Positions 791 through 48,954 of a stretch of 64,000 nucleotides of DNA are shown in pieces; the first letter of the stretch is position 1, and each line of letters starts with the position of its first letter. A model generated the notes under the pieces. The model worked only from the letters and a program-made list of their open reading frames with translations, was not told the DNA's origin and searched no databases. This DNA is from Candidatus Micrarchaeia archaeon. Lineage in GTDB: Archaea > Micrarchaeota > Micrarchaeia > Norongarragalinales > Norongarragalinaceae. The stretch lies in the NCBI GenBank assembly GCA_041648335.1, contig JBAZPG010000002.1, positions 30,528-94,527 on the forward strand, given 5' to 3'. The position numbers and the translations under genes are program-made.

Positions 791-2347
791 ATGCAAGCCC
801 GCCCAAGCCTTTGTTTGACTATAATTCTGTTCGCCTGCCTGGCGTTCGCGAACACCGCGATGGAAGAAGGACGCCTGTACGCGGACGGCTTGGAGGAAGT
901 TTCCCTCGCCAGCGTGTCGGTTGGCGGGAACGACTACCACATCCTACTCTTCGACAACGTGGAGAGCGTTGTCCTGGACGCCGACTCGCTCGAGGCGGTC
1001 ACGGATTCCGCGAAAATCGAGGCTGTCGCCGTAGAATACCAGAAGGCGCAACTGCCGTTGCTGGACCCGGATTCCAAGTATGCGGCGGTCAACGCGTCGT
1101 TCGCGCCCGTGGACTCGGTTGCCGGCGACTGCGTTGAAGGTTTGCAGTTCTTCTTCTCGCGCCCGGGAAGCCAGCTCATAGTTTACACGCGGGGCGCACC
1201 GAATCAGTACCCGCGTTCGCACGACGTGCTCGAGGAGCCGGACAGCGAGTTCATCAACGTTTCATCGTTCAACGACACCTCCCAGCTGGGCGACGCGCAC
1301 TCGGACTTGTGGGACGCGTTCAATGCGATGCAGTCCTCGGTCGCGACCCTCGAGGCGGCGCGCGATTCGGACAGCATAGACGACGCGGTCACCGCGCTCC
1401 ACACCATCGTGGAGAACACGGATGCGCTCCTTTTGGCGTACAACGCCTCGTGGTTTTACATCAACGAGATTGAGGCGGAGTGGAACCAGAACTTCATGTA
1501 TATGTGGATTAACGGCCAGGAGAGGAACTGCGAAGCGTATACCGAGCTGGCGTCGGGCATTTCCGCGCTCGAGTCCGCGGCTAGCGCACCCGAGTTCGAG
1601 ACCACGGATGAATTGATTTCACGGATAATCAGCGAGACCGCCGAACGCGCCCCGATGGCAGCCCAACTCAAGGTGGTGGACGAGAAGCGCGACGCGTTGT
1701 CCGAGTTCAGCGTTCAAGCCAACGCGATAATCAGCGGGTTCGCGGCTTACAACGCGGGTTCCGCGTTCTTCGCCGGGGAATACGCGGCGTTGAACGCGTC
1801 GTTTGACGCCATGGCCGCGGAAGGCGCCGAGGACTCCCTTGAAGCGAACGCAGCCGCGTTCGACGCGAAATTCGCGGAGGTTAAGGCGCTCGCGGACTCG
1901 TATTCGCTCGCCTTGCAGGAGTATTCCGGGGCTAGGGACGTGCTCGCGAACGCTTCCACGCACCTCGCTGCCGCAGCCGAGAAGTACGGCGGCACGGACG
2001 AGCGCATCGTTTCCCTCCAGGCGACCGTCCAGCAGTTGAACTCGCGGCTCACCGTCGAGGAGCAGTTGCTCTCGAGCGGTGCCTACAACGGTTCGACCGC
2101 CGAGTTGGATTTGATTTACGTGAACGCAACGAGCGTGAACGCGGCGGCGTTCGGGATGCAGCCCCGCGAGAACGAACTGGATTGGGTAATGATAGGCGGG
2201 ATAATCGTGCTCTTGCTCACCCTCGTGGGCGGTTTCATTTACCTCAAGAAGTACAAGGACGAAGGCGGGTTCGGCGGAGGCCCGAGCGGACCCAAGTTCC
2301 ACGAGGAAGGCACTTCAAGTTCGCCCGGCACCATAGTCGAACGCTGA
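791..2347 (+). CDS. Ala-rich cell-surface protein with N-terminal signal peptide and C-terminal transmembrane anchor
   Basis: N-terminal hydrophobic signal (LCLTIILFACLAFA); C-terminal TM helix (IGGIIVLLLTLVGGFIY) followed by short Gly-rich tail; long helical Ala/Glu-rich body. Confidence 0.6.
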   Translation: MQARPSLCLTIILFACLAFANTAMEEGRLYADGLEEVSLASVSVGGNDYHILLFDNVESVVLDADSLEAVTDSAKIEAVAVEYQKAQLPLLDPDSKYAAVNASFAPVDSVAGDCVEGLQFFFSRPGSQLIVYTRGAPNQYPRSHDVLEEPDSEFINVSSFNDTSQLGDAHSDLWDAFNAMQSSVATLEAARDSDSIDDAVTALHTIVENTDALLLAYNASWFYINEIEAEWNQNFMYMWINGQERNCEAYTELASGISALESAASAPEFETTDELISRIISETAERAPMAAQLKVVDEKRDALSEFSVQANAIISGFAAYNAGSAFFAGEYAALNASFDAMAAEGAEDSLEANAAAFDAKFAEVKALADSYSLALQEYSGARDVLANASTHLAAAAEKYGGTDERIVSLQATVQQLNSRLTVEEQLLSSGAYNGSTAELDLIYVNATSVNAAAFGMQPRENELDWVMIGGIIVLLLTLVGGFIYLKKYKDEGGFGGGPSGPKFHEEGTSSSPGTIVER

Positions 2348-2475
2348 ACCGTGTTTCAGAACGAACCTTTTTCAAAAAAAGGTTCATCAAAAACCTGCTT
2401 ATGGGGGAACCGTGATTCAGAACGAACCTTTTCTTTACGAAAGAAAAGGTTCATCAAAAGAAAACTGGACGGCTT
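2347..2475. repeat. Two tandem partial copies of the tRNA-Pro 3' end, each followed by a perfect hairpin (gaacctttttcaaaaaaaggttc; gaaccttttctttacgaaagaaaaggttc)
   Basis: The motif (t)atgggggaaccgtgattcagaacgaacc at about 2348 and 2401 mirrors the 3' acceptor/T-arm of the adjacent tRNA-Pro (2476-2500); hairpins carry T/A runs. Confidence 0.55.
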
Positions 2476-2548
2476 ATGGGGGAACCGTGATTCGAACACG
2501 GGTCTCCAGCTCCCAAAGCTGGCAGGATGCCAAGCTACCCCATTCCCC
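2476..2548 (-). tRNA. tRNA-Pro (anticodon TGG)
   Basis: Reverse complement: acceptor GGGGGAA/TTCCCCC, D-arm, anticodon stem CCAGC/GCTGG with loop TTTGGGA, T-arm CCGTG-TTCGAAT-CACGG, discriminator A. Confidence 0.75.
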
Positions 2549-2579
2549 CTCTTACTTATTTTTACACCCACACGCGGTT

Positions 2580-2855
2580 TTAAGCAATGGGGAAACCCGC
2601 GAGCGAGGCGAGTATCAGCAAACCGACGCCCGCCAAGCCCAGGAGCCCGCACAACGCGACGGTTAAAAAGTTCACGGCCACGTTCACGCCGTAAGCAGCA
2701 CCCAGGTAGTTCACCGCGAACAACGCGATTACGCCGAGTGCAGCGTTCACTATGAACTTCTTCAACAGGAACACGATGACGAGCCCGGCGATTATCAACA
2801 CGACCGCGGCGATTGCGAACGGAATCAAGCTCAAGGCGAACCACTCGAAAATCAT
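2580..2855 (-). CDS. Small hydrophobic membrane protein (3 predicted TM helices), unknown function
   Basis: 91-aa ORF, almost entirely hydrophobic; lies immediately downstream of rad50 on the same strand. Confidence 0.45.
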   Translation of the reverse strand: MIFEWFALSLIPFAIAAVVLIIAGLVIVFLLKKFIVNAALGVIALFAVNYLGAAYGVNVAVNFLTVALCGLLGLAGVGLLILASLAGFPIA

Positions 2856-2886
2856 TCTTCCACCCTTTTCACTTGGTGCGTCCGGC

Positions 2887-4884
2887 TTATTTCTTCGTTA
2901 CGGTGGACGCCCCGCCCTTCTTCGAGACGAGCTGCACGTTGTCTGCGAACGCCTCGAGTTCGGGTTCGTGCGACACTAGTATCACCTGCCCCTCCTTCAG
3001 TTCGTCGAAGACTAGACGCATCCTCTCCAACTGCTCGCGGCTGAACCCATCCGTTGGCTCGTCCAAGATGAGCAGGTTCTCCTTCATAGCCGCGCACTCG
3101 CGCTTCACCAGCTCGTTCAACGCCAGGCGGTACGCCAATGCAACTGCGGTCTTCTCTCCGCCGCTCAACGCGTTCACATCCTGTTCATAACCATTCTGGG
3201 TGACGGTGGGCGCGAACGACTCGTCCAGCGATGCCTCCAAGTCCCCGCCCTCCAGCAGGGCTGCGGTCCACTTCGAGAAAAGCGAGTTGAACTCGCGGTT
3301 CAGGTAACGGAGCACGTGCTCTTCAATCGAATCAAGCGCAGGCGCGAAATACTCCTCGAGCCACGCCTTCTTCCCCGAGAGCGCGGTTGCCTCGGCTTCG
3401 AAGACGCGCGCCTCCTCTTCCCCGCGGCGCGCCTCGGCTAGGCTGCGTTCGTCGCGCTCCAGCGAGGCGTGCGCAGCTGCTGCGGCTTTTTCCGTGTTCC
3501 CGGATTCGAGGCGCAGCGAACGCACTCCCTTTTCCTTTTCCAAGCAGGCGGCCAGCGCGTCCTTCGCTTCCTCCAGGCGCTCCTTCTTCCCCTTGAGTTC
3601 GGCTTCCTCGCTGGCAATGTTTTTTTCCGTAACCGTAATTTTCACGGAGAGCGCTTTCGCGCGTTCCTCTGCGGCAGCGGCTTCGGCTTTCCGCTTCTCG
3701 GCTTCATTCCAAGCCGCCTCGGCTTTGATTGCCGCGTCTTTTTCCCTGCCCAACTCCTCGCAGCGCGCGTGCGCCCCTGCCGCTTGGCAGGCGAGCTTCC
3801 CTTCCTTCTCGTCGTTGTCCTCGATTTTCTTTTTGAAACCCTCGGCTGAGGTTTCCTGTCCGCAAGTCGGGCACGCGCCCTTCTCGACCAGGCGCGCCAA
3901 GTCCTCGCTCCTCGCCTGGAGGCGCGCCTTCTCCGACTCGAGGGTGCGCGCCTTCGCTTCGGCGTCACGCAGTTCCCCTGCGAGCGCAGCCGAGGATTTT
4001 GCGGGTTTCACAGCCGCGGTCATCTCAAATGTTTTTTTCGCGAGGCGTCCGGCTTCCGCGGCGTACTCGGCGAGCGCGGCGCGCGCCAATGCAACCGAGC
4101 GTTCGAGGCGGGGCACCTCGGCTGCGAGCGCGGCTGCCGCTGCCTTGCTTTTCCCGAGCGCTTCGAATTCGGCTTCCGCTGTTTCGAGCGCGGCGCGCTT
4201 GAGTCCGGCTTGCGTTTCGAGTTCAATTGTTTTCGCGCGCTCCTCCTCCACCGCCTCGGCGAGCGAAGCGATGCTCTCGCGCAACGCGGGCAAACCCCGC
4301 AACGCGCCCTCGAGGAAATTGGCGCGCAGGCGCATCGCCTGTAGCGCCGAGCGCGCGTTGTCCTTCGCGTTCTTGTATTCCTCTACCCCGAACGCCTTGC
4401 GGAGCGTCTGCAACCGCTCGTCGGGCTTCTGGGCGAGTATGAGCTTCATTTCCTCCTGGGGGGTGAAAACCGCGTAACGGTAGATCACGCTCGTGCTCTT
4501 CGCGTCCGGCGGCTCGTTGAACCCGAGTATCTTGAGCACCGCGGGCTTGATTTCCGAAGGCGCGAGCGTGCGGCGCACGCCGTCCGACTCGAGCCAGCCC
4601 TCCCCCTGCGTCACCGCCTTCCTGCGCTCGAGGGTGCGTTCGACCGCGTACCTGACGCCGTTCGCTTCGAAGTCCAGGCGCACCCTGCCGTTCTTGGCGC
4701 CGTGCCTCAACAAGTGGCTCGCCTTGATTTCACCGAGTCCGAACAACGCGAATTCCACAGCGTACAAGAGCGTGCTCTTTCCCGAACCGATGTCGCCCTC
4801 GAATAGCGTGACTCCATTCGCGAAGTCCACGACCGCGCTGGAGTAAGAGCGCACGTTCTCGAGTTCGAGGCGCAACAGTTTCAC
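2887..4884 (-). CDS. rad50: DNA double-strand break repair ATPase Rad50 (SbcC family), short coiled-coil variant
   Basis: Walker A GDIGSGKST near the N-terminus, zinc-hook CPTCG in the middle of the coiled coil, ABC signature LSGGEKTAVALAYRLAL, Walker B LLILDEPT, H-loop VILVSHE. Confidence 0.9.
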   Translation of the reverse strand: MKLLRLELENVRSYSSAVVDFANGVTLFEGDIGSGKSTLLYAVEFALFGLGEIKASHLLRHGAKNGRVRLDFEANGVRYAVERTLERRKAVTQGEGWLESDGVRRTLAPSEIKPAVLKILGFNEPPDAKSTSVIYRYAVFTPQEEMKLILAQKPDERLQTLRKAFGVEEYKNAKDNARSALQAMRLRANFLEGALRGLPALRESIASLAEAVEEERAKTIELETQAGLKRAALETAEAEFEALGKSKAAAAALAAEVPRLERSVALARAALAEYAAEAGRLAKKTFEMTAAVKPAKSSAALAGELRDAEAKARTLESEKARLQARSEDLARLVEKGACPTCGQETSAEGFKKKIEDNDEKEGKLACQAAGAHARCEELGREKDAAIKAEAAWNEAEKRKAEAAAAEERAKALSVKITVTEKNIASEEAELKGKKERLEEAKDALAACLEKEKGVRSLRLESGNTEKAAAAAHASLERDERSLAEARRGEEEARVFEAEATALSGKKAWLEEYFAPALDSIEEHVLRYLNREFNSLFSKWTAALLEGGDLEASLDESFAPTVTQNGYEQDVNALSGGEKTAVALAYRLALNELVKRECAAMKENLLILDEPTDGFSREQLERMRLVFDELKEGQVILVSHEPELEAFADNVQLVSKKGGASTVTKK

Positions 4885-6090
4885 TCAAAGCGCCTCCAAT
4901 GCCTTCGCCGCCTTTGCCGTAACACGCGCCTCGAAGTCAGTGCGCGTCTCCCCCTCGGGTTTCGCCTCTTTGAGCGCGTCAAGCAGGGGCAGGGCGGGTG
5001 CCGTGTTCCACTTCCCGCAAGAGAGTTCTTCGAACAGCTTCTCCTCGACTTCCCGCTTGTTCTCCCCTTCGACTTTGAACGCTGCTGATTCGGGCGACGA
5101 CAAGCCCGCGCGGTTCACTTTCACCGCCAGCGCACCAGTGAACGCCGCGGCAATTGAGTTGAACTCGATTTCCCCGGGATTCCCGGACGCGAGCGTCCCG
5201 TGCACCTTGAGCAGGACTATTTTGCCCGCGCACTTGCATGCACGCGCCTTTTCCAACAAGGCTTCGCGCACTTGCGCCGGACTCTTTTCGTTGGCGTCCG
5301 CCTCGACCGCAATTGCCTGCGCCGCGTTAACGGGTTTGAATTCAGTTGTTGTTTTTCCGTTGTTCACGCGCACCAGGTAGAACCCGTGCTCTTTTTTTGA
5401 GAGGTCCTCCAAGTCACGGTAATCCGCGGCGAACAACGGCCCCGGAAACACGATTTTTCCATAGTTTTTCTCGGTTGTTTCGATGCGTTCGTGCACGTGC
5501 CCGCCCGCGTAATAGTCGAAGCCCTTCGGGAACAGCGAGAGCGGCACGCCGTCCACTCCCTTCAGGAAGTCCGGCTTGTGTTCCTCTACCCCCGAGTGGA
5601 AAACGAATATCTTGTAACCAACACCCGCCTCGAGGGAAGCGCGGTCGAGCGCCTCGAAGTGCTCGCGTTCGATGCCGCGCTTTCGGGCATCCAAGCCCGT
5701 GAGGCGCGCCCCGGTTTCCTTGTCCTCGGCGAACGAGAGCTTCAAGCGTTCCCCCTCGTAATCTCCGAGGGACACCTTGGACAGGAGCCCCGCGCTCTCG
5801 AGCACGTCGATTAAGTTTTTCTCGGCGGGAGAATAGTCGTGCGAGCCGTACACCGCGTACACGCGCTTGCCTTGGTCGCGGAGGCGGCGGAGCGCGCGCA
5901 CCGCGCGGTTTGCCACCCCTAAGTCGGGTAACGGGGAGTCGAACAAGTCGCCCGCGATGATTACGAAGTCCGCTTCGCCGCACCCATCCAAGGCGAGCTC
6001 GAAGGCACGGCAGTTCAACTCGCGTAACTCGGGTTCCCGGAAAGCCCCGAGGTGGACGTCGCTGATGTGCGCGAAGCAGAAGTCCTTCAT
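4885..6090 (-). CDS. mre11: DNA double-strand break repair nuclease Mre11 (calcineurin-like phosphoesterase)
   Basis: N-terminal HISDVHLG and GDLFD phosphoesterase motifs; abuts rad50 (stop/start adjacent) in the canonical mre11-rad50 order. Confidence 0.9.
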   Translation of the reverse strand: MKDFCFAHISDVHLGAFREPELRELNCRAFELALDGCGEADFVIIAGDLFDSPLPDLGVANRAVRALRRLRDQGKRVYAVYGSHDYSPAEKNLIDVLESAGLLSKVSLGDYEGERLKLSFAEDKETGARLTGLDARKRGIEREHFEALDRASLEAGVGYKIFVFHSGVEEHKPDFLKGVDGVPLSLFPKGFDYYAGGHVHERIETTEKNYGKIVFPGPLFAADYRDLEDLSKKEHGFYLVRVNNGKTTTEFKPVNAAQAIAVEADANEKSPAQVREALLEKARACKCAGKIVLLKVHGTLASGNPGEIEFNSIAAAFTGALAVKVNRAGLSSPESAAFKVEGENKREVEEKLFEELSCGKWNTAPALPLLDALKEAKPEGETRTDFEARVTAKAAKALEAL

Positions 6091-6115
6091 AGCAGTTTTT
6101 TGGTCGCCAGCGAAT

Positions 6116-6412
6116 TTAAACGAAGCGAGGGGTGACTGCCGGTGTTAATTGCCCTTTATACCATCGCTCGTATTCCTTGTGGTTGCCCACGAAGACGACG
6201 CGCTTTTGTTTGAGGTCCGCACGCGTCTTGAACACGATTCTGTAACCGCCGACTTCCTCCACGAACACGGGCAAGCCGCGCCTCAAGTGCCTGGATTCGG
6301 CGTCCTCGCGCTCCAGCCACGCCAGCTTTTTGGCTATCTTGTCGCGCGCCGTCTTGTCCAACCGCGACAACTGCCTCGCGGCTTCCTCCTCGAGCGCTAC
6401 TTGAAACGCCAA
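6116..6412 (-). CDS. parE: Type II toxin, RelE/ParE family
   Basis: 98-aa protein with YRIVF...RVVFVGNHKEYERWYK C-terminal motif typical of RelE/ParE toxins; 4 nt downstream of an RHH antitoxin gene. Confidence 0.65.
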   Translation of the reverse strand: MAFQVALEEEAARQLSRLDKTARDKIAKKLAWLEREDAESRHLRRGLPVFVEEVGGYRIVFKTRADLKQKRVVFVGNHKEYERWYKGQLTPAVTPRFV

Positions 6413-6416
6413 TGAA

Positions 6417-6689
6417 TCACTTCCGCGCGTTCGCGCGCTTTACCGCCTCGCGCCAGGGCACGAGCTTGCGCTTGCCGGCGTCAATCTCGGCGTCAATCCG
6501 CTCGGTTTTGCGCGCCACGAGTTCAACCTCGATTTCCTTTGGGTCCATCAAGCAATACTCCCTGCCGAGTTCGAGCACGCCCGCGCGAATGGCTTCCGAA
6601 CGGGTTTGAAAATAACCCCGTTCAACGAGCTTATCCAGCACCACGGAAACCGCGCCCTCCAACCTAACCACTGCTTCCAAGCAAACCAC
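6417..6689 (-). CDS. parD: Type II antitoxin, ParD-like ribbon-helix-helix protein (GTG start)
   Basis: LDKLVERGYFQTRSEAIRAGVLEL matches the ParD/RHH consensus (sGrYasrSEvIRaaLR); operon partner of the ParE-like ORF. Confidence 0.65.
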   Translation of the reverse strand: MVCLEAVVRLEGAVSVVLDKLVERGYFQTRSEAIRAGVLELGREYCLMDPKEIEVELVARKTERIDAEIDAGKRKLVPWREAVKRANARK

Positions 6690-6790
6690 CTATAGAACAT
6701 ATACAAAACACCTATTATTATAGGTATTCTGTATTTTGCGGCGGGTTGCCCGGTAGCTGTTCCGCGGCCGGGTTAAAAAACGATTTCCAA
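6690..6790. promoter_or_regulatory. AT-rich divergent intergenic region with near-palindrome acctat-tatt-ataggt (6710-6725) and TATA-like tracts; candidate parDE promoter/operator
   Basis: Palindrome sits about 20-36 nt upstream of the parD start; GC drops sharply relative to flanks. Confidence 0.35.
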
Positions 6791-6887
6791 CCCGTGCCTG
6801 CCGGTGGAGATGCCTCGTTTTTGTTTCGAGTCCGCGCGTTTTGAGTGCCAGCCGAGGTTATAAGGCGGGCTTGCCAGTAATGTTTTT

Positions 6888-7556
6888 ATGCCTAGGCCTA
6901 TGCTTGAGAAGCCGGCGTTTAATCGTCGGGATTTGTCCCGGTTATCCGGAGAAGAGCGCAAAAACTATCTCGCTAACCTGCTTAGGTTGGTGCCAAGCCC
7001 GATCCATTCTAACACTAAACCCATAATCGCCGCGTTTATGAAAAATAGGTCACTTAATACTGCCGCGAAAGTGTTGAATGATACCGGCGTTGTTGTCAAC
7101 AAAATAGCACAAATATTTAGGGCGCACGGCGCTGATCACCGCGGAATTACTAATGGTTTGAATGCTGCGGGTTTTGGTAATGAGGATATTGCTCGTGGTT
7201 TGAAGTCTGCTGGTTTTGATTACGAGGATATTACTAGTGGTTTGAAGTCTGCTGGTTTTGGTCATGAGGATATTGCTCGTGGTTTGATTTCTGCGGGTTT
7301 TGGTGAGGATACTATTGCTAGTGGTTTGAAGTTTGCTGGTTTTGGTAATGAGGATATTGCGGTTGGTTTGTTTGCTGCTGGTTTTAGTCATGTGGGCGTT
7401 GCGAGTGGTTTGAAGGCTGTAGGGTATAATCATGTGGACGTTGCTCGCGGTTTGATTGCTGCTGGTTATGGTCCTAAGGATGTTGCCCGTGGTCTGATTG
7501 ATGCGGGGTTTAGTCCTGAGCGCGTTGTTCTTGGTTTGAAGTTTGCGGGGGTATAA
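6888..7556 (+). CDS. Tandem-repeat protein, N-terminal segment (18-residue GL(K/N)(S/A)AGF..EDIA repeats); terminated by a frameshift in a G5 run
   Basis: Non-repetitive N-terminal 75 aa, then 8 or more repeats of ..EDIARGLKSAGFGH..; stop created at the homopolymer gcggggg (7547-7551). Confidence 0.55.
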   Translation: MPRPMLEKPAFNRRDLSRLSGEERKNYLANLLRLVPSPIHSNTKPIIAAFMKNRSLNTAAKVLNDTGVVVNKIAQIFRAHGADHRGITNGLNAAGFGNEDIARGLKSAGFDYEDITSGLKSAGFGHEDIARGLISAGFGEDTIASGLKFAGFGNEDIAVGLFAAGFSHVGVASGLKAVGYNHVDVARGLIAAGYGPKDVARGLIDAGFSPERVVLGLKFAGV

Positions 7557-7870
7557 CCCTATGGCTGTTGCGATTGGTTTGAATGCTGCTGGTTTTAATC
7601 ATAAGGCTATTACCCGCGGTTTGAATGTTGCTGGTTTTGATCATAAGGCTATTGCCCGTGGTTTGAATGCTGCGGGTTTTGATTATGTGGATATTGTGGC
7701 TGGTTTGAAGTATGCGGGTTTTGGTCACGAGGATATTGCGGTTGGTTTGAAGTCTGCTGGGTATAGTCCGGCGGATGTTGCTCAGTGTTTGAAAGCGGTT
7801 GGTTCTAGGGATTACAACGAACTTGCTCGTGCTTTGAAAGCCGCTGGTTTTGATAACCTAGACATTGCCC
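7130..7870 (+). repeat. About 54-bp coding tandem repeats (ggtttgaa..gctggttttg..gaggatattgc..) underlying the repeat protein
   Basis: Direct repeats visible at nucleotide level; produce low-complexity shadow ORFs on the opposite strand. Confidence 0.6.
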
Positions 7871-7962
7871 GCTTTTTGAAGGCTTCCGGTTTGAGTACTG
7901 CCCGTTACCCCTATAATCCTGGACCTAGTCGGGCGGTTCTTAAAAAAGTTATAAAAAAATAG
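7543..7962 (+). CDS. Tandem-repeat protein, C-terminal segment (same repeat family, +1 frame relative to 6888-7556)
   Basis: Continues the identical repeat (GLNAAGFNHKAITRGLNVAGFDHKAIARGL...) and ends in a non-repetitive tail; removing one G at 7547-7551 fuses both ORFs into one ~357-aa protein. Confidence 0.55.
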   Translation: MRGYNPMAVAIGLNAAGFNHKAITRGLNVAGFDHKAIARGLNAAGFDYVDIVAGLKYAGFGHEDIAVGLKSAGYSPADVAQCLKAVGSRDYNELARALKAAGFDNLDIARFLKASGLSTARYPYNPGPSRAVLKKVIKK

Positions 7963-7980
7963 GTGCCGGCGGGTGTTGGT

Positions 7981-8397
7981 TCAGCGGAGTGATACGTGGT
8001 GGTGGCGGAAGCGCTGCCACACGCTCGGCTCCTTATTCGTGAGCGTCACCGTGCGGTCGTCGTGGATGCGCGCGTGCGCGTGCTTTGCGTGCAAGCCGTG
8101 TGCACGGAATGCCTCGCGCAAGGCGGCGCGTTCGCGTTCGACTATGCTGCGGCTGTAATACATTCCCGCGAGGATTACGAGCGCGAAGAACAGGGGCGCG
8201 TTCGACAGGACGAATTCCGTTAGCGGGTGGATTGCCGTGCGAAGTATTATGGGGTGTGCGGCGAGCGCGCTCAACGCCAGCGCGGTTAAGCCCAGGGCTT
8301 CGGCAGCGTAGTAACGCGCGCGTAACGCCACGAAGCGCGAGACGCGCGCGCGCAACGCCGCGGGTAACTCGGCGTGCGCGTAGTGCCGGTCCTTCAC
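7981..8397 (-). CDS. Hypothetical membrane protein, translationally coupled (ATGA overlap) to the herA stop
   Basis: 138-aa ORF with 2-3 hydrophobic helices; start overlaps herA stop by 4 nt. Confidence 0.45.
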
Positions 8398-9836
8398 GGG
8401 TAACTCCTCTTCGCCGCCTGGCTGGGGCGGATGTGTTCTTCGAACAACGGCACTGCCACGGGCAGGGCGAAGCGGGTGAAAACGCTCGTGACTATAGCCT
8501 CGCCCTTGTCGAGCGCGGCAATCGCCTTATCATCCGTGGACAAATCCTGGGAGGCGCTTGCTATGAGCGCGTCGCGCTCCTGTTTCATCTCGTTTCCGAG
8601 TATGATTTTCGTGTTCAGGTTCGCGAGCACCTCGCGGGGAATCAAGCTCGCGAGCTGGGTGACTGCTATCAAGCCGACGCCGAACTTGCGTCCCTCGCGC
8701 GCGATGCTCGAAAACACGTTCGCGCCCGCGGCTTCGCCGAGCACGCGGGGCGCCTCCTCGAGCACCACGCTAACTACGGGTTTGTTCTCTTGTGCTGCCT
8801 TGCGTTTGTTGAAGAGCGCGTTCGCGAAAACGCTCGCGACTAGGAGTTCGGCTTCGCTCGAGAGGCGCGAGGTATCCACGAGCACCTTGCGGGAGGCGAG
8901 CAGGTGGCTGGTGACATCGTCCACTATTGTCTTGCCGCCTTCCGCGGTGAAAACGCGTTCGTCGAGCACGATTCCGAGCTTGCGTTGGAGCACGTTGAGC
9001 GTAATGTCCTGGACTTTGTCGCCCAAGGTTTCGCCGGCGAGGAGTTTGGGCACCCACTCGTGGTCCCAGCTCTTGAACGCCAGGTGCATGGTTTGCTGTT
9101 GCGCTTCGGTGAACGGCATCACGCCGTTGAAGTGCCACGGCTTGAGCGACGCGTAGTTGATGCGGAGCGAGACCTGTCCGTTCTCGGGGTTCGGGGAATA
9201 CGATTTCAGCCACTCGCCCGCGTGCGGGTGGCTGCGTAGGGCGCGGTGGTACTCGTTGTGCGGGTCCATCACAAGACAGCCGCAGTAACCCTTGTCAAGC
9301 AAATCGTAGAGCATGACTTTCACGAGGTTGCTCTTGCCGCGTCCGGTGGTTGCGGGTATGAGGATGTGGTGGCTCAACACTTTCTCGCCGTCGAGCTCGA
9401 TGCGCTTGCCGGTTGTCTTGCTCCCGTTCCGTAAGTTACCAATGTACAACGGTTTCTCGGGTTTCTCGAGGAACGCCAAGTCCGAGTCGTTGATGCGTCG
9501 CAAACCCTTGAAGAAAGCGGGGAGGCGCTTCGTCGCGACTGCTTTCCCGTTCCGCAAGGTAACCAAGCCCTTGACCTTGGCTAGCACGTAGTTGCGTAAT
9601 TCTTCCTCGAAGAAAACCGATTTCTCCGCCTTGCCTTCGAGTTTGAGTCCGCTCATCAACTCGATTTGCTCGGGCGCGGTCTGGCTCCCGTACTCCAAAT
9701 CGTACACCTGGAGGAGCTGCGTGGAGTCGCCTTCCTCGCACGCGAGCAACTCGCCGATTTCGAGCGCTTCGCCGCTCTTCTGGCGCACGGCGATTTCCCC
9801 GAAAGCGCCCGAGACAATCTGGCTTACTATCTCCAT
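8394..9836 (-). CDS. herA: HerA-family DNA repair helicase (FtsK/HerA ATPase)
   Basis: Walker [17 protein letters not shown], FtsK-like ATPase core; preferred start is the internal ATG (MEIVSQ...) 10 nt after the nurA stop rather than the longer track ORF (to 9992). Confidence 0.8.
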
Positions 9837-9846
9837 TTGAAGCACC

Positions 9847-10833
9847 TCAAATCCTATCCAAGTAATCGTGAGCGTCCACGGTTGCGGAGTCGCGTTCGAT
9901 TTCCCGCCACGCTTCCACGCCGAGTTCCGCCGCGGCAACCGTGCGCAACTGCCTTGCCTCCTCGAAGGACACGCGGGCGCGCTTGTCTGCATCCACCAAG
10001 CCGTACGGGTAACCGAGGAACGCCAAGTCCGCGGACTGGAACGCGAGCGCAGGAAGAACGCTGAACGGGTCGCACCCGCGCTTGACTTCGAAGCGGAAGC
10101 AGTGCGTCGCGTTCTCGTGGAGTTTGGCGACGAACAAGTCCGCGTCGTGGTCGGGCTCCGCGTTCACGCAAAGCGGACCGTACACCCAGGGCGCCTTGCG
10201 GGCGCCGGCGAGGCGTGCGACCGCGGACACGAGCGGCAGTCCCGTTGTAGTGTAAAGCGAACTCGTCTTGGCGAGCGCCGAGAACACGCCTTTCGCTTGC
10301 GCGTACGCGCTTTTCGCGTAAGCCGCTTCGTTCGTCACGCTCGACTGGAGCGTGCCGTCCCGCACTGGGTTCTCGCACGCACCCGCCAGGATCCATTCGG
10401 CGTAACGCCGCGCAACGGCACCCAGGGCGCTCGGGGGTGCCTTGAACCCGCCTTGCGCGAGCGAAGGGTCAACCCAATCCAATGCAACGATGTCGTCGAG
10501 TAGCTTTTCGCCGCTCAACTGCAGCGTTTTTGCAGTCAAGAGCATCTTGCCGCCCGACGGTTCGACGCGCGTGATTACGAGGAACTCGGATTCGCGCGAG
10601 CCCGTGCGCGCGGCGCCGTCGAAAGTGTTCGCGTAAATGCGCACGAGCTGGATTGAGAGGTTCGGCGTGTTCACCACGCTCGCGTTGCCTCCGTCCACGC
10701 ACGACAGCAAGCCGGGTTCGGCGTCGAACGAGCGGAAGCGCGCCTCGTCGAACGCGAGCGAGCGGTAGCGCGGGTCCGTGAACAGCGGTTCGCCCAGCTC
10801 GGTTGCGTGCGGCTTCAAGTCAAGGGAGAACAT
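9847..10833 (-). CDS. nurA: NurA-family 5'-3' nuclease
   Basis: About 330 aa with N-terminal VDGGNASV (NurA D-G-S-type motif) directly upstream of herA, the canonical nurA-herA pairing. Confidence 0.65.
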
Positions 10834-11627: not shown

Positions 11628-12247
11628 AATACTGTCCGGCATGCGGAAAGGCGCTCCCCCAGCCGAACCCGAAGCACTGCCCGGAATGCGGCGAGGCAAC
11701 GAGCGCGCGGTTTGCCGCAAAAGCCGTGGAGAAGAAGCCGAAGATGAGTATTGTCGGACGCCTGCGGGTACTCGGCATTGCAGCTCTCGTGTTGATTTTC
11801 CTTTTCGCGGCTGCAATGTGCGCGGCTGCGCCTTGGCAACGCGCGGCTGCGGCGGGAAACCAGTATTACGAATACCTGACAATGTTCAACAACGACTTGA
11901 ACGACCTCCAGCAACTCAACGAACAATACGACGAACTGCCGCTCGACGATTCGGCGTTCAATCGGAAGTCCGCGATTGCGGGCAGTTACGCCCTGCAGGC
12001 AAGCCAGGCGGTAACCACCTGGAGGTACTTCGATTCCTTCATAACCAAAAACCAGGCGTCGCTGGCGCGGTGGGATTTGAACGCCAGCCTGACGCAGGCG
12101 CGGATAACGGATAGTCGGGCGGTCGTACGGAACACCGCGAATAAAATGGCTTCGGAACTCGAGGAATTCGCGGGCTCGAACCCGGAGAGAATGGCTTCGA
12201 TTTCAAGGATGCTCGAAAAACTCAAGGAACTGGGGAACTTGCAATGA
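11624..12247 (+). CDS. Zinc-ribbon (CPACG..CPECG) membrane-anchored protein, paralog of the previous gene
   Basis: N-terminal C-P-x-C-G x2 zinc ribbon, one TM helix, helical extracytoplasmic domain; ATGA overlaps with both neighbours. Confidence 0.45.
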   Translation: MKYCPACGKALPQPNPKHCPECGEATSARFAAKAVEKKPKMSIVGRLRVLGIAALVLIFLFAAAMCAAAPWQRAAAAGNQYYEYLTMFNNDLNDLQQLNEQYDELPLDDSAFNRKSAIAGSYALQASQAVTTWRYFDSFITKNQASLARWDLNASLTQARITDSRAVVRNTANKMASELEEFAGSNPERMASISRMLEKLKELGNLQ

Positions 12248-13998
12248 AACTGATTGCCAACGGATACGGGTTGACTGCGCTGTTGCTTGCGGCGTTGTTG
12301 TTGGCTGCGCCCCTTGCAAGCGCTCAGGAGGAAGAAATGATTTCCGTGCCGTTCGTTTTCCAATTCTATTTCCTTTATGGAACGAGCGTAGGCGAATGCG
12401 ATGCCAATTGCGTGGGCTCGTGCATGTCCCCGTGCTATGCCGCTGCGGCAGCTGCAGGCGGGTTAAGTGGCACCTCCAACTGCGGTTCCGTGTGCCCGTC
12501 CAGGTGCGCCAGCGAATGCGCCGCGGTATTTTCAAACGCGTACCAGGCGGACGACGGGCTTCCCTCGACCCCATTCGAACCGGAATGCAGTTACGGCTCC
12601 TACACCGCTTGCGAAGTACCGCAACAATCCGTGTCGGAGATAGAACCGTCCTGGCCCGTTATTTCCGAGGGAACGCCCTCGCTCGATGGACCCGGGATGC
12701 TTGGCGGAGGCACGGAGAGCGACGGGGAATACGATGGTGGCGCGGGCATAACCGTCGAGCCGCAAACCTGTGCCGCAACAGCACCCGACGGCCACCCGCT
12801 GCGGTGGGACCAGATTTGGGGTTGCTATGACATTTTCTGGAAGAACGATTACTGCGCTGTCGCAACCGGCTGCAACACCGGCGTGCCGTGCACCGGAAGG
12901 CAGGGTTGCATATGGAATGGTGCCTCCTGCGTGCCGTGCAATGCGCCGACCTGCATATACTCGTGTCCTGGAACTGGTGGCGGACCCGCTGCGCCAGCCG
13001 ACCGGGTGACTGCGGTTCAAAATGAAATTCCCGCGCCCACTGCTGCACCGACGCGCCAGGCGGGCGGAACACCGACTCCCGTGCCAAGCGCAGCGCCAGC
13101 ACAGCCCACCCCAACAGCCATCCCTACTGCAACGCCCGCCCCGGTATGCGGCGCCTACGGGAACTGCAAGGCGTGCGTGAACGCGGCGAAAGAGGAGGGT
13201 GAAAGCGTTTGCGGGTGGTCCGAATTCCTAAACATTTGCATGGACGGCGACACCTGGCGCGCGGTGAACGCGAGCGGGCTCAAGGCCGGCTGGGCGGATG
13301 AGGAAAAGTACTGTCCGGTCCAAGCCGAGGTTTACTGTTTTGAATTCACCGACTGCTTTTCCTGTGCTGGCAATGCCGGCGTCAAACGCGAGTGCCTGTG
13401 GTCAACCACCCAGGAAAAATGCGAGCCCTACGACGCGTTCGGGGATTTCAAAACCGAGGACAACCCGAAGGGCAAGGACGTGATTCTTCCAACAATGTGC
13501 TCGGAGCGCGACTGCTCGGCGTATTCCGGGTGCGCGGAATGCGAGGGTAACGCCGCGTGCATTTGGCCGGAGGGCGGCGATGAGTGCTCGACGTTCAAAG
13601 GCGACGGCGAGGGCGCATACTTCTTCCCGAGCGCGTGCCCTGATGCAACAATTGAAGCGGTTGTGGCTGCGCCGACGTCCGTCCCCTGTCCGGCGGGCTG
13701 CAAGTGCAACTCGCAGGCGAAACCGGTTTCGTGCGGCGGCAAGAGCATTGATTCCGCGAGCCTGGTTTCAGTTGACCGCGCGGTTGTAAACGCGGGCGCT
13801 TCTCTCCAGCGGGTGAACGAGGTGGAGTTCAACCAGGCTGCTGCCGGCGGGAACGCATCCTACGCCGTGCGCGGTTCCCGGAGTGGAGTGGTATTCTTCG
13901 TGTTGCCCGTGAGCTTTGACGTTACCGCGGTTGTGAACGCGGAGACCGGCGAAGTCGAATCAGTCGAGCAGCCCTGGTGGAGCGTCCTAGTCGGCTGA
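12244..13998 (+). CDS. Secreted Cys-rich protein with repeated PSI-like (C..C..C..W..C) modules and a Pro/Thr/Ala-rich linker
   Basis: Signal peptide (LLAALLLAAPLASA); over 40 Cys in recurring CxxC..CxW..C patterns; PTAAPTRQAGGTPTPVPSAAPAQPTPTAIPTATPAP linker. Confidence 0.5.
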   Translation: MKLIANGYGLTALLLAALLLAAPLASAQEEEMISVPFVFQFYFLYGTSVGECDANCVGSCMSPCYAAAAAAGGLSGTSNCGSVCPSRCASECAAVFSNAYQADDGLPSTPFEPECSYGSYTACEVPQQSVSEIEPSWPVISEGTPSLDGPGMLGGGTESDGEYDGGAGITVEPQTCAATAPDGHPLRWDQIWGCYDIFWKNDYCAVATGCNTGVPCTGRQGCIWNGASCVPCNAPTCIYSCPGTGGGPAAPADRVTAVQNEIPAPTAAPTRQAGGTPTPVPSAAPAQPTPTAIPTATPAPVCGAYGNCKACVNAAKEEGESVCGWSEFLNICMDGDTWRAVNASGLKAGWADEEKYCPVQAEVYCFEFTDCFSCAGNAGVKRECLWSTTQEKCEPYDAFGDFKTEDNPKGKDVILPTMCSERDCSAYSGCAECEGNAACIWPEGGDECSTFKGDGEGAYFFPSACPDATIEAVVAAPTSVPCPAGCKCNSQAKPVSCGGKSIDSASLVSVDRAVVNAGASLQRVNEVEFNQAAAGGNASYAVRGSRSGVVFFVLPVSFDVTAVVNAETGEVESVEQPWWSVLVG

Positions 13999-48849: not shown

Positions 48850-48954
48850 CGCCGAGGACGAGATTCGAACTCGCACAGGTCAAAGACCCACCAGATTCCT
48901 CGCCCTTTCTCGGGGCTTCGAGTCTGGCGCGTTACCGGGTTCCGCCACCTCGGC
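48850..48954 (-). tRNA. tRNA-Ser (anticodon CGA) with long variable arm and a putative approx. 20-nt intron after position 37
   Basis: Reverse complement: acceptor GCCGAGG/CCTCGGC, discriminator G; anticodon stem CCAGA/TCTGG enclosing CTCGAA + intron (gccccgagaaagggcgagg; intron CGAG can pair with anticodon CTCG as in BHB motifs); variable arm GGGTC-TTT-GACC; T-arm GCGAG-TTCGAAT-CTCGT. Confidence 0.55.

Follow-up and report, generated by a model that had tools for sequence, protein, structure and literature searches.

The locus at positions 2887–10833 of the window (the whole analysed stretch, 64,000 nucleotides of contig JBAZPG010000002.1 of a Candidatus Micrarchaeia archaeon) raises the question of whether a DNA repair cluster, nurA-herA-mre11-rad50, has been opened by the insertion of mobile or addiction genes, as proposed in the initial annotation. 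The locus is probably the resection cluster typical of its lineage, apparently made up of two transcription units, whose junction has gained a foreign repeat-protein gene and a toxin-antitoxin cassette. Of the proposal, the acquisition of the toxin-antitoxin pair and the repeat gene stands, the same spacer being 61 bp long in a close relative; the hallmarks of mobility were not found at the insert. The insertion is real but fairly ordinary, and is one case of a common pattern.

Genes were called in the window from a list of open reading frames (ORFs) and their translations and then scanned against Pfam and NCBIfam. All genes listed initially are present at the positions given. The four repair genes are all on the minus strand, as first reported: nurA at 9847–10833 (328 aa), herA at 8394–9836 (480 aa), mre11 at 4885–6090 (401 aa) and rad50 at 2887–4884 (665 aa). 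The herA neighbourhoods of relatives were retrieved, and a wider survey with hidden Markov models (HMMs) took in 96 herA loci, drawn from GTDB species genomes and from earlier look-ups. The order nurA-herA-(variable)-mre11-rad50, on one strand, is present in every Micrarchaeota locus examined. All four genes in this order are found at no fewer than 24 distinct loci of the HMM survey, in many phyla, including Bathyarchaeota, Nitrososphaeria, Thermoplasmata, Methanobacteria, Aenigmatarchaeota and Odinarchaeota. Since the order is common to the lineage and to many phyla, it is no rearrangement of this genome, as had been supposed, and differs only from the order in Sulfolobus and Pyrococcus. The statement that the genes form one operon in most archaea was likewise too broad; the four-gene cluster is documented for (hyper)thermophiles (PMC2288612, PMC2700283).

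The closest relative, Micrarchaeota CG_4_10_14_0_2_um_filter_60 (loci L013–L016), shares 75% identity with the window in NurA, 81% in HerA, 72% in Mre11 and 63% in Rad50. Its flanks are syntenic with those of the window, with a P-type ATPase and MarR upstream and BofA, a protein of ~500 aa and MarC downstream. Synteny comparison shows it to be devoid of every intervening gene; herA and mre11 are separated by 61 bp. Syntenic flanks around so short a spacer indicate that the intervening DNA of the window is derived. Toxin, antitoxin and repeat proteins were detected by tblastn in none of 94 other herA loci. The cassette occurs in unrelated contexts elsewhere. Among 80 metagenome loci kept for context, out of 291 relatives of the toxin from a metagenome pattern scan, the cognate antitoxin is directly upstream of the toxin in 61, and in none is the toxin next to nurA, herA or mre11. 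A further example of the pair (L012) lies between a CN-hydrolase gene and the gene of ribosomal protein S10. Synteny, cassette context and the absence by tblastn together support a lineage-specific acquisition.

The contents of the herA-mre11 junction vary among the other Micrarchaeota. It consists of 64 bp with no gene in L005, of a 143-aa gene followed by 31 bp in L007, of an unrelated 106-aa gene in L003, of a HAD hydrolase gene in L006, of genes for a 1383-aa protein and an opposite-strand 127-aa product in L010, and of genes for 1169-aa and 453-aa proteins in L017. Giant proteins of 1169–1383 aa thus stand at the junction in two Micrarchaeota (L010, 10831–14982; L017, 11509–15018). The giant of L010 and the 453-aa neighbour in L017 show a weak match to the class III (archaeal pilin-type) signal peptide and no other domains. 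nurA is directly 5' of herA, with a tight junction, in most relatives; the exceptions are L009, with an HNH nuclease and an N6/N4 DNA methyltransferase between the two genes (1655–3394), and L010, with a VapB/PIN (VapBC) pair and a 308-aa gene between them (7702–9324). This 308-aa gene was considered as nurA and rejected at 20% identity; the true NurA of L010 is encoded farther from herA, beyond VapBC.

The identities of the repair genes are supported by motifs, homologues and position. Rad50 is an orthologue with a short coiled coil, assigned from Pfam AAA_23 and SMC_N matches, motifs and synteny. It contains Walker A GDIGSGKS at residue 30, the signature SGGE at residue 574 and Walker B LLILDEP at residue 604. 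The zinc hook is retained, as first noted: CPTC is at residue 338 of 665 and is kept as CPTC in six of six orthologues, across which the head motifs are likewise conserved. Against NCBIfam PRK03918 the E-value is 7e-45 and the best score 153 bits, under the equivalog cutoff of 700. This alignment comprises the two head halves (residues 1–336 and 380–663) and skips ~260 positions of the coiled-coil profile; by this alignment the window Rad50 is a divergent form with short coils. With the score under the cutoff, orthology is argued from synteny with mre11, and rad50 is always directly 3' of mre11 in the relatives examined. Its length had been called unusually short. It is the norm of the lineage, Rad50 of relatives being 659–670 aa long, and reading frames of ~675–715 aa (stop to stop) are present at loci of Bathyarchaeota, Nitrososphaeria, Methanobacteria, Odinarchaeota and Aenigmatarchaeota. 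Short Rad50 coils are a lineage trait and no peculiarity of the window locus.

The stop codon of mre11 abuts the start of rad50. Mre11 matches Pfam Metallophos at E 3e-13 and contains the calcineurin-like phosphoesterase motifs DVH, GDLFD, GSHD and GHVH; against NCBIfam Mre11_Pyroc it reaches E 1e-23 and 84 bits (cutoff 600). HerA matches Pfam DUF87 (PF01935) at E 6e-24 with 85.8 bits (cutoff 23.2), has the P-loop TGRGKSN and reaches E 9e-25 and 87 bits against NCBIfam helicase_HerA (cutoff 970). It has 2669 homologues, of which the nearest named ones are from Micrarchaeota. The start of herA is most likely 9836, which gives the length of 480 aa found in all orthologues, and not 9992, inside nurA. 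With this start herA does not overlap nurA, and a gap of 10 nt separates the two. The 328-aa protein is probably NurA, to judge by its position and by homologues at E 1e-31 to 1e-38 that bear the NCBI name NurA and mostly carry PF09376; those with a source name are from Candidatus Micrarchaeota or Micrarchaeia. The direct match of NurA to PF09376 is weak (E 0.002, 18.1 bits, cutoff 21), and a profile of seven sequences gave no NurA match among PDB sequences. All four repair proteins are far under the NCBIfam equivalog cutoffs. The assignment of nurA-herA-mre11-rad50 as a housekeeping cluster for DNA-end resection is part of the reading given at the outset and has the same good confidence.

In thermophiles the herA-mre11-rad50-nurA operon is presumed to serve 5'-3' end resection for homologous recombination (PMC2288612, PMC4351679). 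The window shares with the operons of Sulfolobus, Pyrococcus and Thermococcus the clustering of the same four families and the same presumed role. It differs in the order (nurA-herA-...-mre11-rad50), in a Rad50 that is ~220 aa shorter with shortened coiled coils, in the low equivalog scores of all four proteins, in the interruption of the cluster by ~2.25–2.3 kb, and in the host, which is no thermophile but an uncultured DPANN archaeon from metagenomes such as groundwater. Haloferax volcanii has an mre11-rad50 operon and no apparent herA or nurA genes (PMC2700283). In both organisms mre11 is directly followed by rad50 as a two-gene unit; in the window herA and nurA are present ~2.3 kb upstream on the same strand. 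The order nurA-herA-mre11-rad50 with a Rad50 of ~670 aa is widespread in uncultured, often mesophilic archaeal lineages, whereas in the literature the four-gene cluster is known mainly from thermophiles.

The toxin-antitoxin pair is on the minus strand between herA and mre11. The toxin gene (6116–6412, 98 aa) and the antitoxin gene (6417–6689, maximal ORF of 90 aa) are 4 nt apart; the probable start of the antitoxin is 6680 or 6671 (87 or 84 aa). The toxin matches the PHROG 'RelE-like toxin' at E 2.5e-6, and a profile of six sequences finds E. coli RelE in the PDB over its full length at E 2.6e-4. Its AlphaFold2 (AF2) model has a predicted local distance difference test score (pLDDT) of 78.7. 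In Foldseek the top 14 PDB matches of the model are all RelE, with query-normalised template modelling (TM) scores of 0.52–0.71 (13 of the 14 reach 0.60), and the highest-ranking ParE match is the 27th. The only Pfam match, HigB_toxin, is under the curated cutoff (E 0.048, 14.4 bits against 27), and no NCBIfam toxin model is matched. Invariant in the toxin family are R58, equivalent to R61 of RelE, and C-terminal H78-K79-x-Y81...Y85; in the profile alignment the positions equivalent to K52 and K54 of E. coli RelE are not basic. The antitoxin gives weak matches to ribbon-helix-helix (RHH) families, all at residues ~18–41: CdrS (E 1.5e-4), RHH_1 (E 0.06), ParD TIGR02606 (E 0.065) and NikR (E 0.16). 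Five of the six PDB matches of its 21-sequence profile are ParD or CopG-type antitoxins, the best at E 0.023. The original label ParD/ParE therefore holds at the level of the superfamily and, by weak matches, for a ParD-like RHH antitoxin; it does not hold for the toxin, which is RelE-like and not ParE-like. The pair is best described as a ParD-like RHH antitoxin with a RelE-fold toxin of predicted activity.

Compared with the RelBE and ParDE modules (E. coli RelBE, PDB 4FXE; archaeal RelBE, 1WMI and 3BPQ), the pair likewise consists of small adjoining genes with the antitoxin first, and it resembles them in the predicted RelE fold of the toxin, the palindrome upstream and, by weak matches, a putative RHH/ParD-like N-terminus of the antitoxin. 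It differs in a toxin that scores under the curated Pfam cutoff and is devoid of basic K52 and K54 equivalents. A word-index search yielded five homologues of the toxin, compared with the 291 of the metagenome pattern scan. One of the relatives, P0121, a toxin from the Joint Genome Institute (JGI), is 99% identical to that of the window; its genomic position was not located by exact look-up. A viral origin of the pair was considered and rejected, no relative having been found in IMG/VR viral contigs. This RelE-fold toxin-antitoxin family, which has no curated family model, is a possible addition to annotation resources.

The second acquired gene encodes a repeat protein and is on the plus strand at 6888–7962. 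Its presence on the strand opposite to the repair genes agrees with the initial annotation. It is not a single ORF: a +1 frameshift in the G5 run at 7547–7551 divides it into ORFs 6888–7556 (222 aa) and 7543–7962 (139 aa). Deletion of one G of this run restores an in-register ORF of 357 aa; both halves are open and keep the repeat consensus. Recent pseudogenisation, phase variation and sequencing error are all possible causes of the frameshift. Two assemblies cover the window locus, one from ENA and one from Logan (L001, L002), and are 100% identical over 13.7 kb; they may come from the same reads, and so provide no independent check of the frameshift or of the arrangement. A 42-bp tandem array occupies 7154–7793 (15.2 copies, Tandem Repeats Finder, period 42), and the protein consists of ~18 in-register units of 14 aa with the consensus GLKSAGFxxEDIAR. 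The gene is compositionally foreign, with a GC content of 0.46 and a GC content at third codon positions (GC3) of 0.36–0.38, compared with GC3 of 0.71–0.81 in its neighbours. An exhaustive search of a representative library found 362 proteins with such repeats, some of up to 4482 aa. No Pfam family matches the window protein, and none covers the repeat in the eight top relatives scanned. The single-sequence AF2 model has an overall pLDDT of 84, which rises above 95 within the repeats, and shows one 10-residue helix per unit. Against the PDB its fold matches only designed helical repeats at TM scores of at most 0.36, with no meaningful match. The 14-residue helical repeat may be an undescribed class of solenoid with one helix per repeat, as modelled by AF2, which can over-idealise repeats. 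Entropies at the three codon positions across the repeat units (0.61, 0.66 and 0.55) are of no use for proving the coding frame; coding on the plus strand is supported by the 362 homologues and the confident model. A 127-aa ORF placed on the opposite strand over this gene by the gene caller of the source collection is regarded as an artefact.

The edge of the insert next to mre11 can be placed by alignment. A TATA-like box (TTTAAAT on the minus strand, 6114–6120) is ~27 nt upstream of the mre11 ATG and is a putative promoter. It lies within a 13-nt block, CTTCGTTTAAATT, which precedes the mre11 start codon by ~21–33 nt in the closest relative (L013) as well as in the window. AT-rich boxes stand at a similar distance from mre11, and likewise upstream of nurA, in five other Micrarchaeota. 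Archaeal TATA boxes lie ~26 nt upstream of the start site, and leaderless mRNAs are frequent. The conserved block suggests that mre11-rad50 has a promoter of its own, which would explain the tolerance of insertions at the herA-mre11 junction. The window toxin is ~10 C-terminal residues longer than its homologues (...TPAVTPRFV*); the extra codons read into the conserved block, and the stop codon (6118–6116) is inside the TATA-like TTTAAA of mre11. As the tail runs into native sequence, the right edge of the insert is probably at ~6119–6145, and the tail is best read as a scar left by fusion at the boundary of the insertion (6114–6145).

Further candidate signals lie within the insert and at its other end. 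The AT-rich palindromic region first noted at 6690–6790 contains an imperfect palindrome of 34 nt at 6701–6734, with 15 pairs, a 4-nt loop and a TATA-like sequence, within a divergent intergenic region of 198 bp with a GC content of 0.49. RHH antitoxins autoregulate at an operator. By analogy, the palindrome is likely to be the promoter and operator of the toxin-antitoxin pair. On the minus strand, oligo-T tracts are present 22–40 nt past the stop of a small gene that follows herA (7942–7959; T7 at 7959–7953, T6 at 7947–7942). Archaeal RNA polymerase terminates at oligo-T, and the tracts are likely to be the terminator of the transcript of nurA, herA and the small gene. The convergent repeat gene encodes its C-terminal KKVIKK on the strand opposite to these T7 and T6 tracts, and one sequence may be both coding tail and terminator. 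A scan for sigma-70 promoters and terminators, a bacterial tool that is not relevant to archaea, gave terminator-like sites at shuffle level and six promoter-like matches that exceed shuffles, three of them in successive copies of the 42-bp repeat. The edges of the insert (6080–6200 and 7930–8010) have no k-mer of at least 7 nt in common in either orientation. Of 61 inverted pairs that flank the repeat gene, the best (6709–6722 and 7952–7965, 12 of 14 positions) is no better than expected by chance.

The following course of events would account for the locus. The cluster would be transcribed as two units, nurA-herA(-small gene) and mre11-rad50, each preceded by a TATA-like box, with a junction that tolerates extra genes. 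This junction would have gained a foreign repeat gene on the opposite strand, now frameshifted, and a type II cassette (RHH/ParD-like antitoxin and RelE-fold toxin) in the orientation of mre11. The cassette would have landed near mre11, so that the toxin frame runs ~10 codons into the old herA-mre11 spacer and ends in the TATA-like box. The transcript of nurA, herA and the small gene would end at the oligo-T tracts close downstream, transcripts from the palindromic promoter may read through into mre11-rad50, and mre11-rad50 would also keep its own promoter. The locus then shows a conserved repair cluster of a reduced-genome DPANN archaeon taking up selfish or accessory DNA at the presumed seam of two transcription units. 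The understanding of the repair pathway is unchanged.

Several points weigh against this account. The identity of the antitoxin depends on marginal E-values. No integrase, transposase, target-site duplication or terminal repeat was found at the insert, and the term mobile is therefore drawn solely from the varied contexts of the cassette. The GC3 of the toxin-antitoxin genes is 0.71–0.76, which is native-like; they could be old residents or have come from a related donor, and the near-native value suggests that the donor may have been a related archaeon. The small gene is patchy, being present in the window and in the lineage of L007; it may be ancestral and have been lost elsewhere, or it may have been gained independently. 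Promoters, terminators and read-through are predicted from sequence, and the two identical assemblies, possibly of the same reads, give the arrangement and the frameshift no independent support.

The orientation of the cassette allows a closer tie to be imagined, in which its promoter drives or co-drives mre11-rad50; loss of the antitoxin under stress would then de-repress the operator and raise the expression of the repair genes, and the cassette would serve as a switch that couples stress to repair. In favour of this, the cassette has the same orientation as mre11, the toxin stop and the mre11 ATG are only 25 nt apart with no oligo-T run in the interval, a palindromic AT-rich region is upstream of the antitoxin, and toxin-antitoxin modules recur at the junction in other archaea. 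Read-through from the toxin-antitoxin promoter into mre11-rad50 is plausible, given that no oligo-T lies between toxin and mre11. However, mre11 retains its own conserved TATA-like box, no repair genes are near the toxin-antitoxin family at any of its 80 loci, and three of the four junction modules elsewhere (L021, L022, L087) are on the strand opposite to mre11, only the HepT/MNT pair of L029 being co-oriented, so that co-transcription is no general feature. No evidence for a functional link of the pair with the repair genes was found at the locus, and such a capture of mre11-rad50 is considered unlikely.

A further reading takes the arrangement as ancestral and the genes between herA and mre11 as conserved accessory subunits of the repair system. 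In its favour is the small gene at 7981–8397 on the minus strand, which encodes a 138-aa protein with two hydrophobic segments and a conserved, His-rich C-terminus (ORF and hydropathy; peaks at residues ~34–52 and 58–81, in 19-residue windows starting at 34 and 58–63). Its GTG start overlaps the herA stop by 4 nt (GTGA), which would couple the two translationally, and its GC3 of 0.81 is that of native genes. Its only detectable homologue is the 143-aa gene in the same position in L007/L008, with 39–45% identity and the same 4-nt overlap with herA; the closer relative L013 is without it. No family match was found in Pfam, NCBIfam or PADLOC, and PHROGs gave one marginal match of unknown function (E 0.022). 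The initial description as a coupled small membrane protein is borne out by position, herA overlap and hydrophobic segments, but the gene is not part of the insert, given the positional homologue in another Micrarchaeota lineage (L007). It is either ancestral with loss in L013 or was gained patchily or independently. For the remaining genes the ancestral reading fails: the closest relative and L005 are without every intervening gene, toxin, antitoxin and repeat proteins are in 0 of 94 other herA loci and the small protein only in L007/L008, and the repeat gene is foreign in composition and frameshifted. An ancestral arrangement with conserved core ORFs, as would have argued against an insertion, was not found for the toxin-antitoxin pair and the repeat gene. 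Ancestral or core status is rejected for these and is possible for the small gene; as an explanation of the whole locus it is very improbable.

An anti-virus function of the cluster is more improbable still. HerA, NurA and the Rad50-like and Mre11-like proteins would then form a defence system, in the manner of Lamassu LmuB or antiphage HerA, to which the toxin-antitoxin pair would add another defence gene. Rad50 is similar in size to LmuB (~600–650 aa) and matches the PADLOC LmuB model over its full length with 120 bits, HerA matches PADLOC HerA models, and other Micrarchaeota clusters contain restriction-modification-like HNH and methyltransferase genes (L009) or VapBC (L010). In contrast to LmuB, the window Rad50 scores higher against NCBIfam Rad50 models (153 bits), has a conserved CxxC zinc hook, and is accompanied by a Mre11 phosphoesterase partner and housekeeping synteny. 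The four-gene order with housekeeping flanks is conserved across phyla, RadA is nearby in several relatives, and no Lamassu LmuA-type effector is present. Sequence scores alone (120 versus 153 bits) hardly distinguish a short-coil Rad50 from LmuB.

A mis-assembly of metagenome reads that joined the repeat gene or the whole insert to the cluster, suggested by a GC content (0.46) and GC3 (0.37) sharply unlike the contig, by tandem repeats prone to assembly error and by a homopolymer frameshift, is equally improbable given the identity of the ENA and Logan assemblies over 13.7 kb (possibly from the same reads), the in-frame fusion of the toxin ORF with native mre11 upstream sequence and a contig of 533 kb that is syntenic with relatives on both sides.

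The acquisition by a lineage-typical cluster of a repeat gene and a cassette was also placed among other archaea. Gap statistics were taken from 59 distinct loci with herA followed by mre11 on the same strand within 10 kb. The gap is at most 150 bp at 24 loci, 150–1000 bp at 18 and more than 1 kb at 17; at nine further loci no mre11 is found within at least 5 kb downstream of herA. The split of the cluster, presented initially as noteworthy, is thus a common state: the two genes are more than 150 bp apart at 35 of the 59 loci. The gap of the window is ~2.25–2.3 kb, of which the accessory part (toxin-antitoxin pair and repeat gene) makes up ~1.9 kb.

A toxin-antitoxin module is in the gap at five of the 59 loci: the window, L021, L022, L087 and L029. 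Among 75 gap ORFs scanned against Pfam, ParE_toxin is the most frequent family, with three matches, and RHH_1 is matched twice. The ParE_toxin (PF05016) matches belong to modules in L021 (4410–5088; Thermoplasmata) and L022 (1930–3370; Saliniplasma), both from halophilic Thermoplasmatota, and in L087 (3072–3977; Woesearchaeota). The HepT/MNT pair of L029 is at 2857–3866. A RelE/ParE toxin directly after herA on the truncated contig of L020 (11733–12011) came from a local iterative search, which in 1.36 Mb found this toxin and one elsewhere (L056) and is biased, its seeds having been taken from gaps. The toxins of the window, L020, L021, L022 and L087 are mutually 22–32% identical or not detectably similar, and their orientations differ, which suggests independent acquisitions. 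Toxin-antitoxin Pfam matches among ORFs of 70–115 aa number 4 of 12 in the gaps and at least 4 of 150 in the control (Fisher p ~0.001), a comparison of small numbers and related taxa, with control matches read from the best 25 of 35 families and with a gap that is by definition the variable part of the cluster. The control consisted of 150 random ORFs of 70–115 aa from 796 kb outside the clusters; its matches are MazE (twice), HicA and VapB, and ParE_toxin is not among the best 25 of 35 families. Tentatively, type II toxin-antitoxin modules, of the RelE/ParE type and others, may have landed repeatedly at the herA-mre11 junction in distant phyla; such a landing pad is a lead, not a result, and rather doubtful. 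If true, it could reflect selfish persistence, a cassette wedged between linked and important repair genes being hard to delete, or a functional tie of toxin action with the repair of DNA breaks. Were it confirmed by a census, the junction would be a natural test case for addiction modules settling beside essential loci.

Two other features of the window were recorded. Upstream of nurA, a gene at 12244–13998 on the plus strand encodes a secreted protein of 584 aa that is rich in cysteine and has a linker rich in Pro, Thr and Ala. Two small genes, whose products are putative membrane or zinc-ribbon proteins, precede it, and different genes occupy its position in the closest relative. At 48850–48954 on the minus strand is a 105-nt tRNA identified by Rfam and missed by ARAGORN; it probably contains an intron, consistent with archaeal origin.

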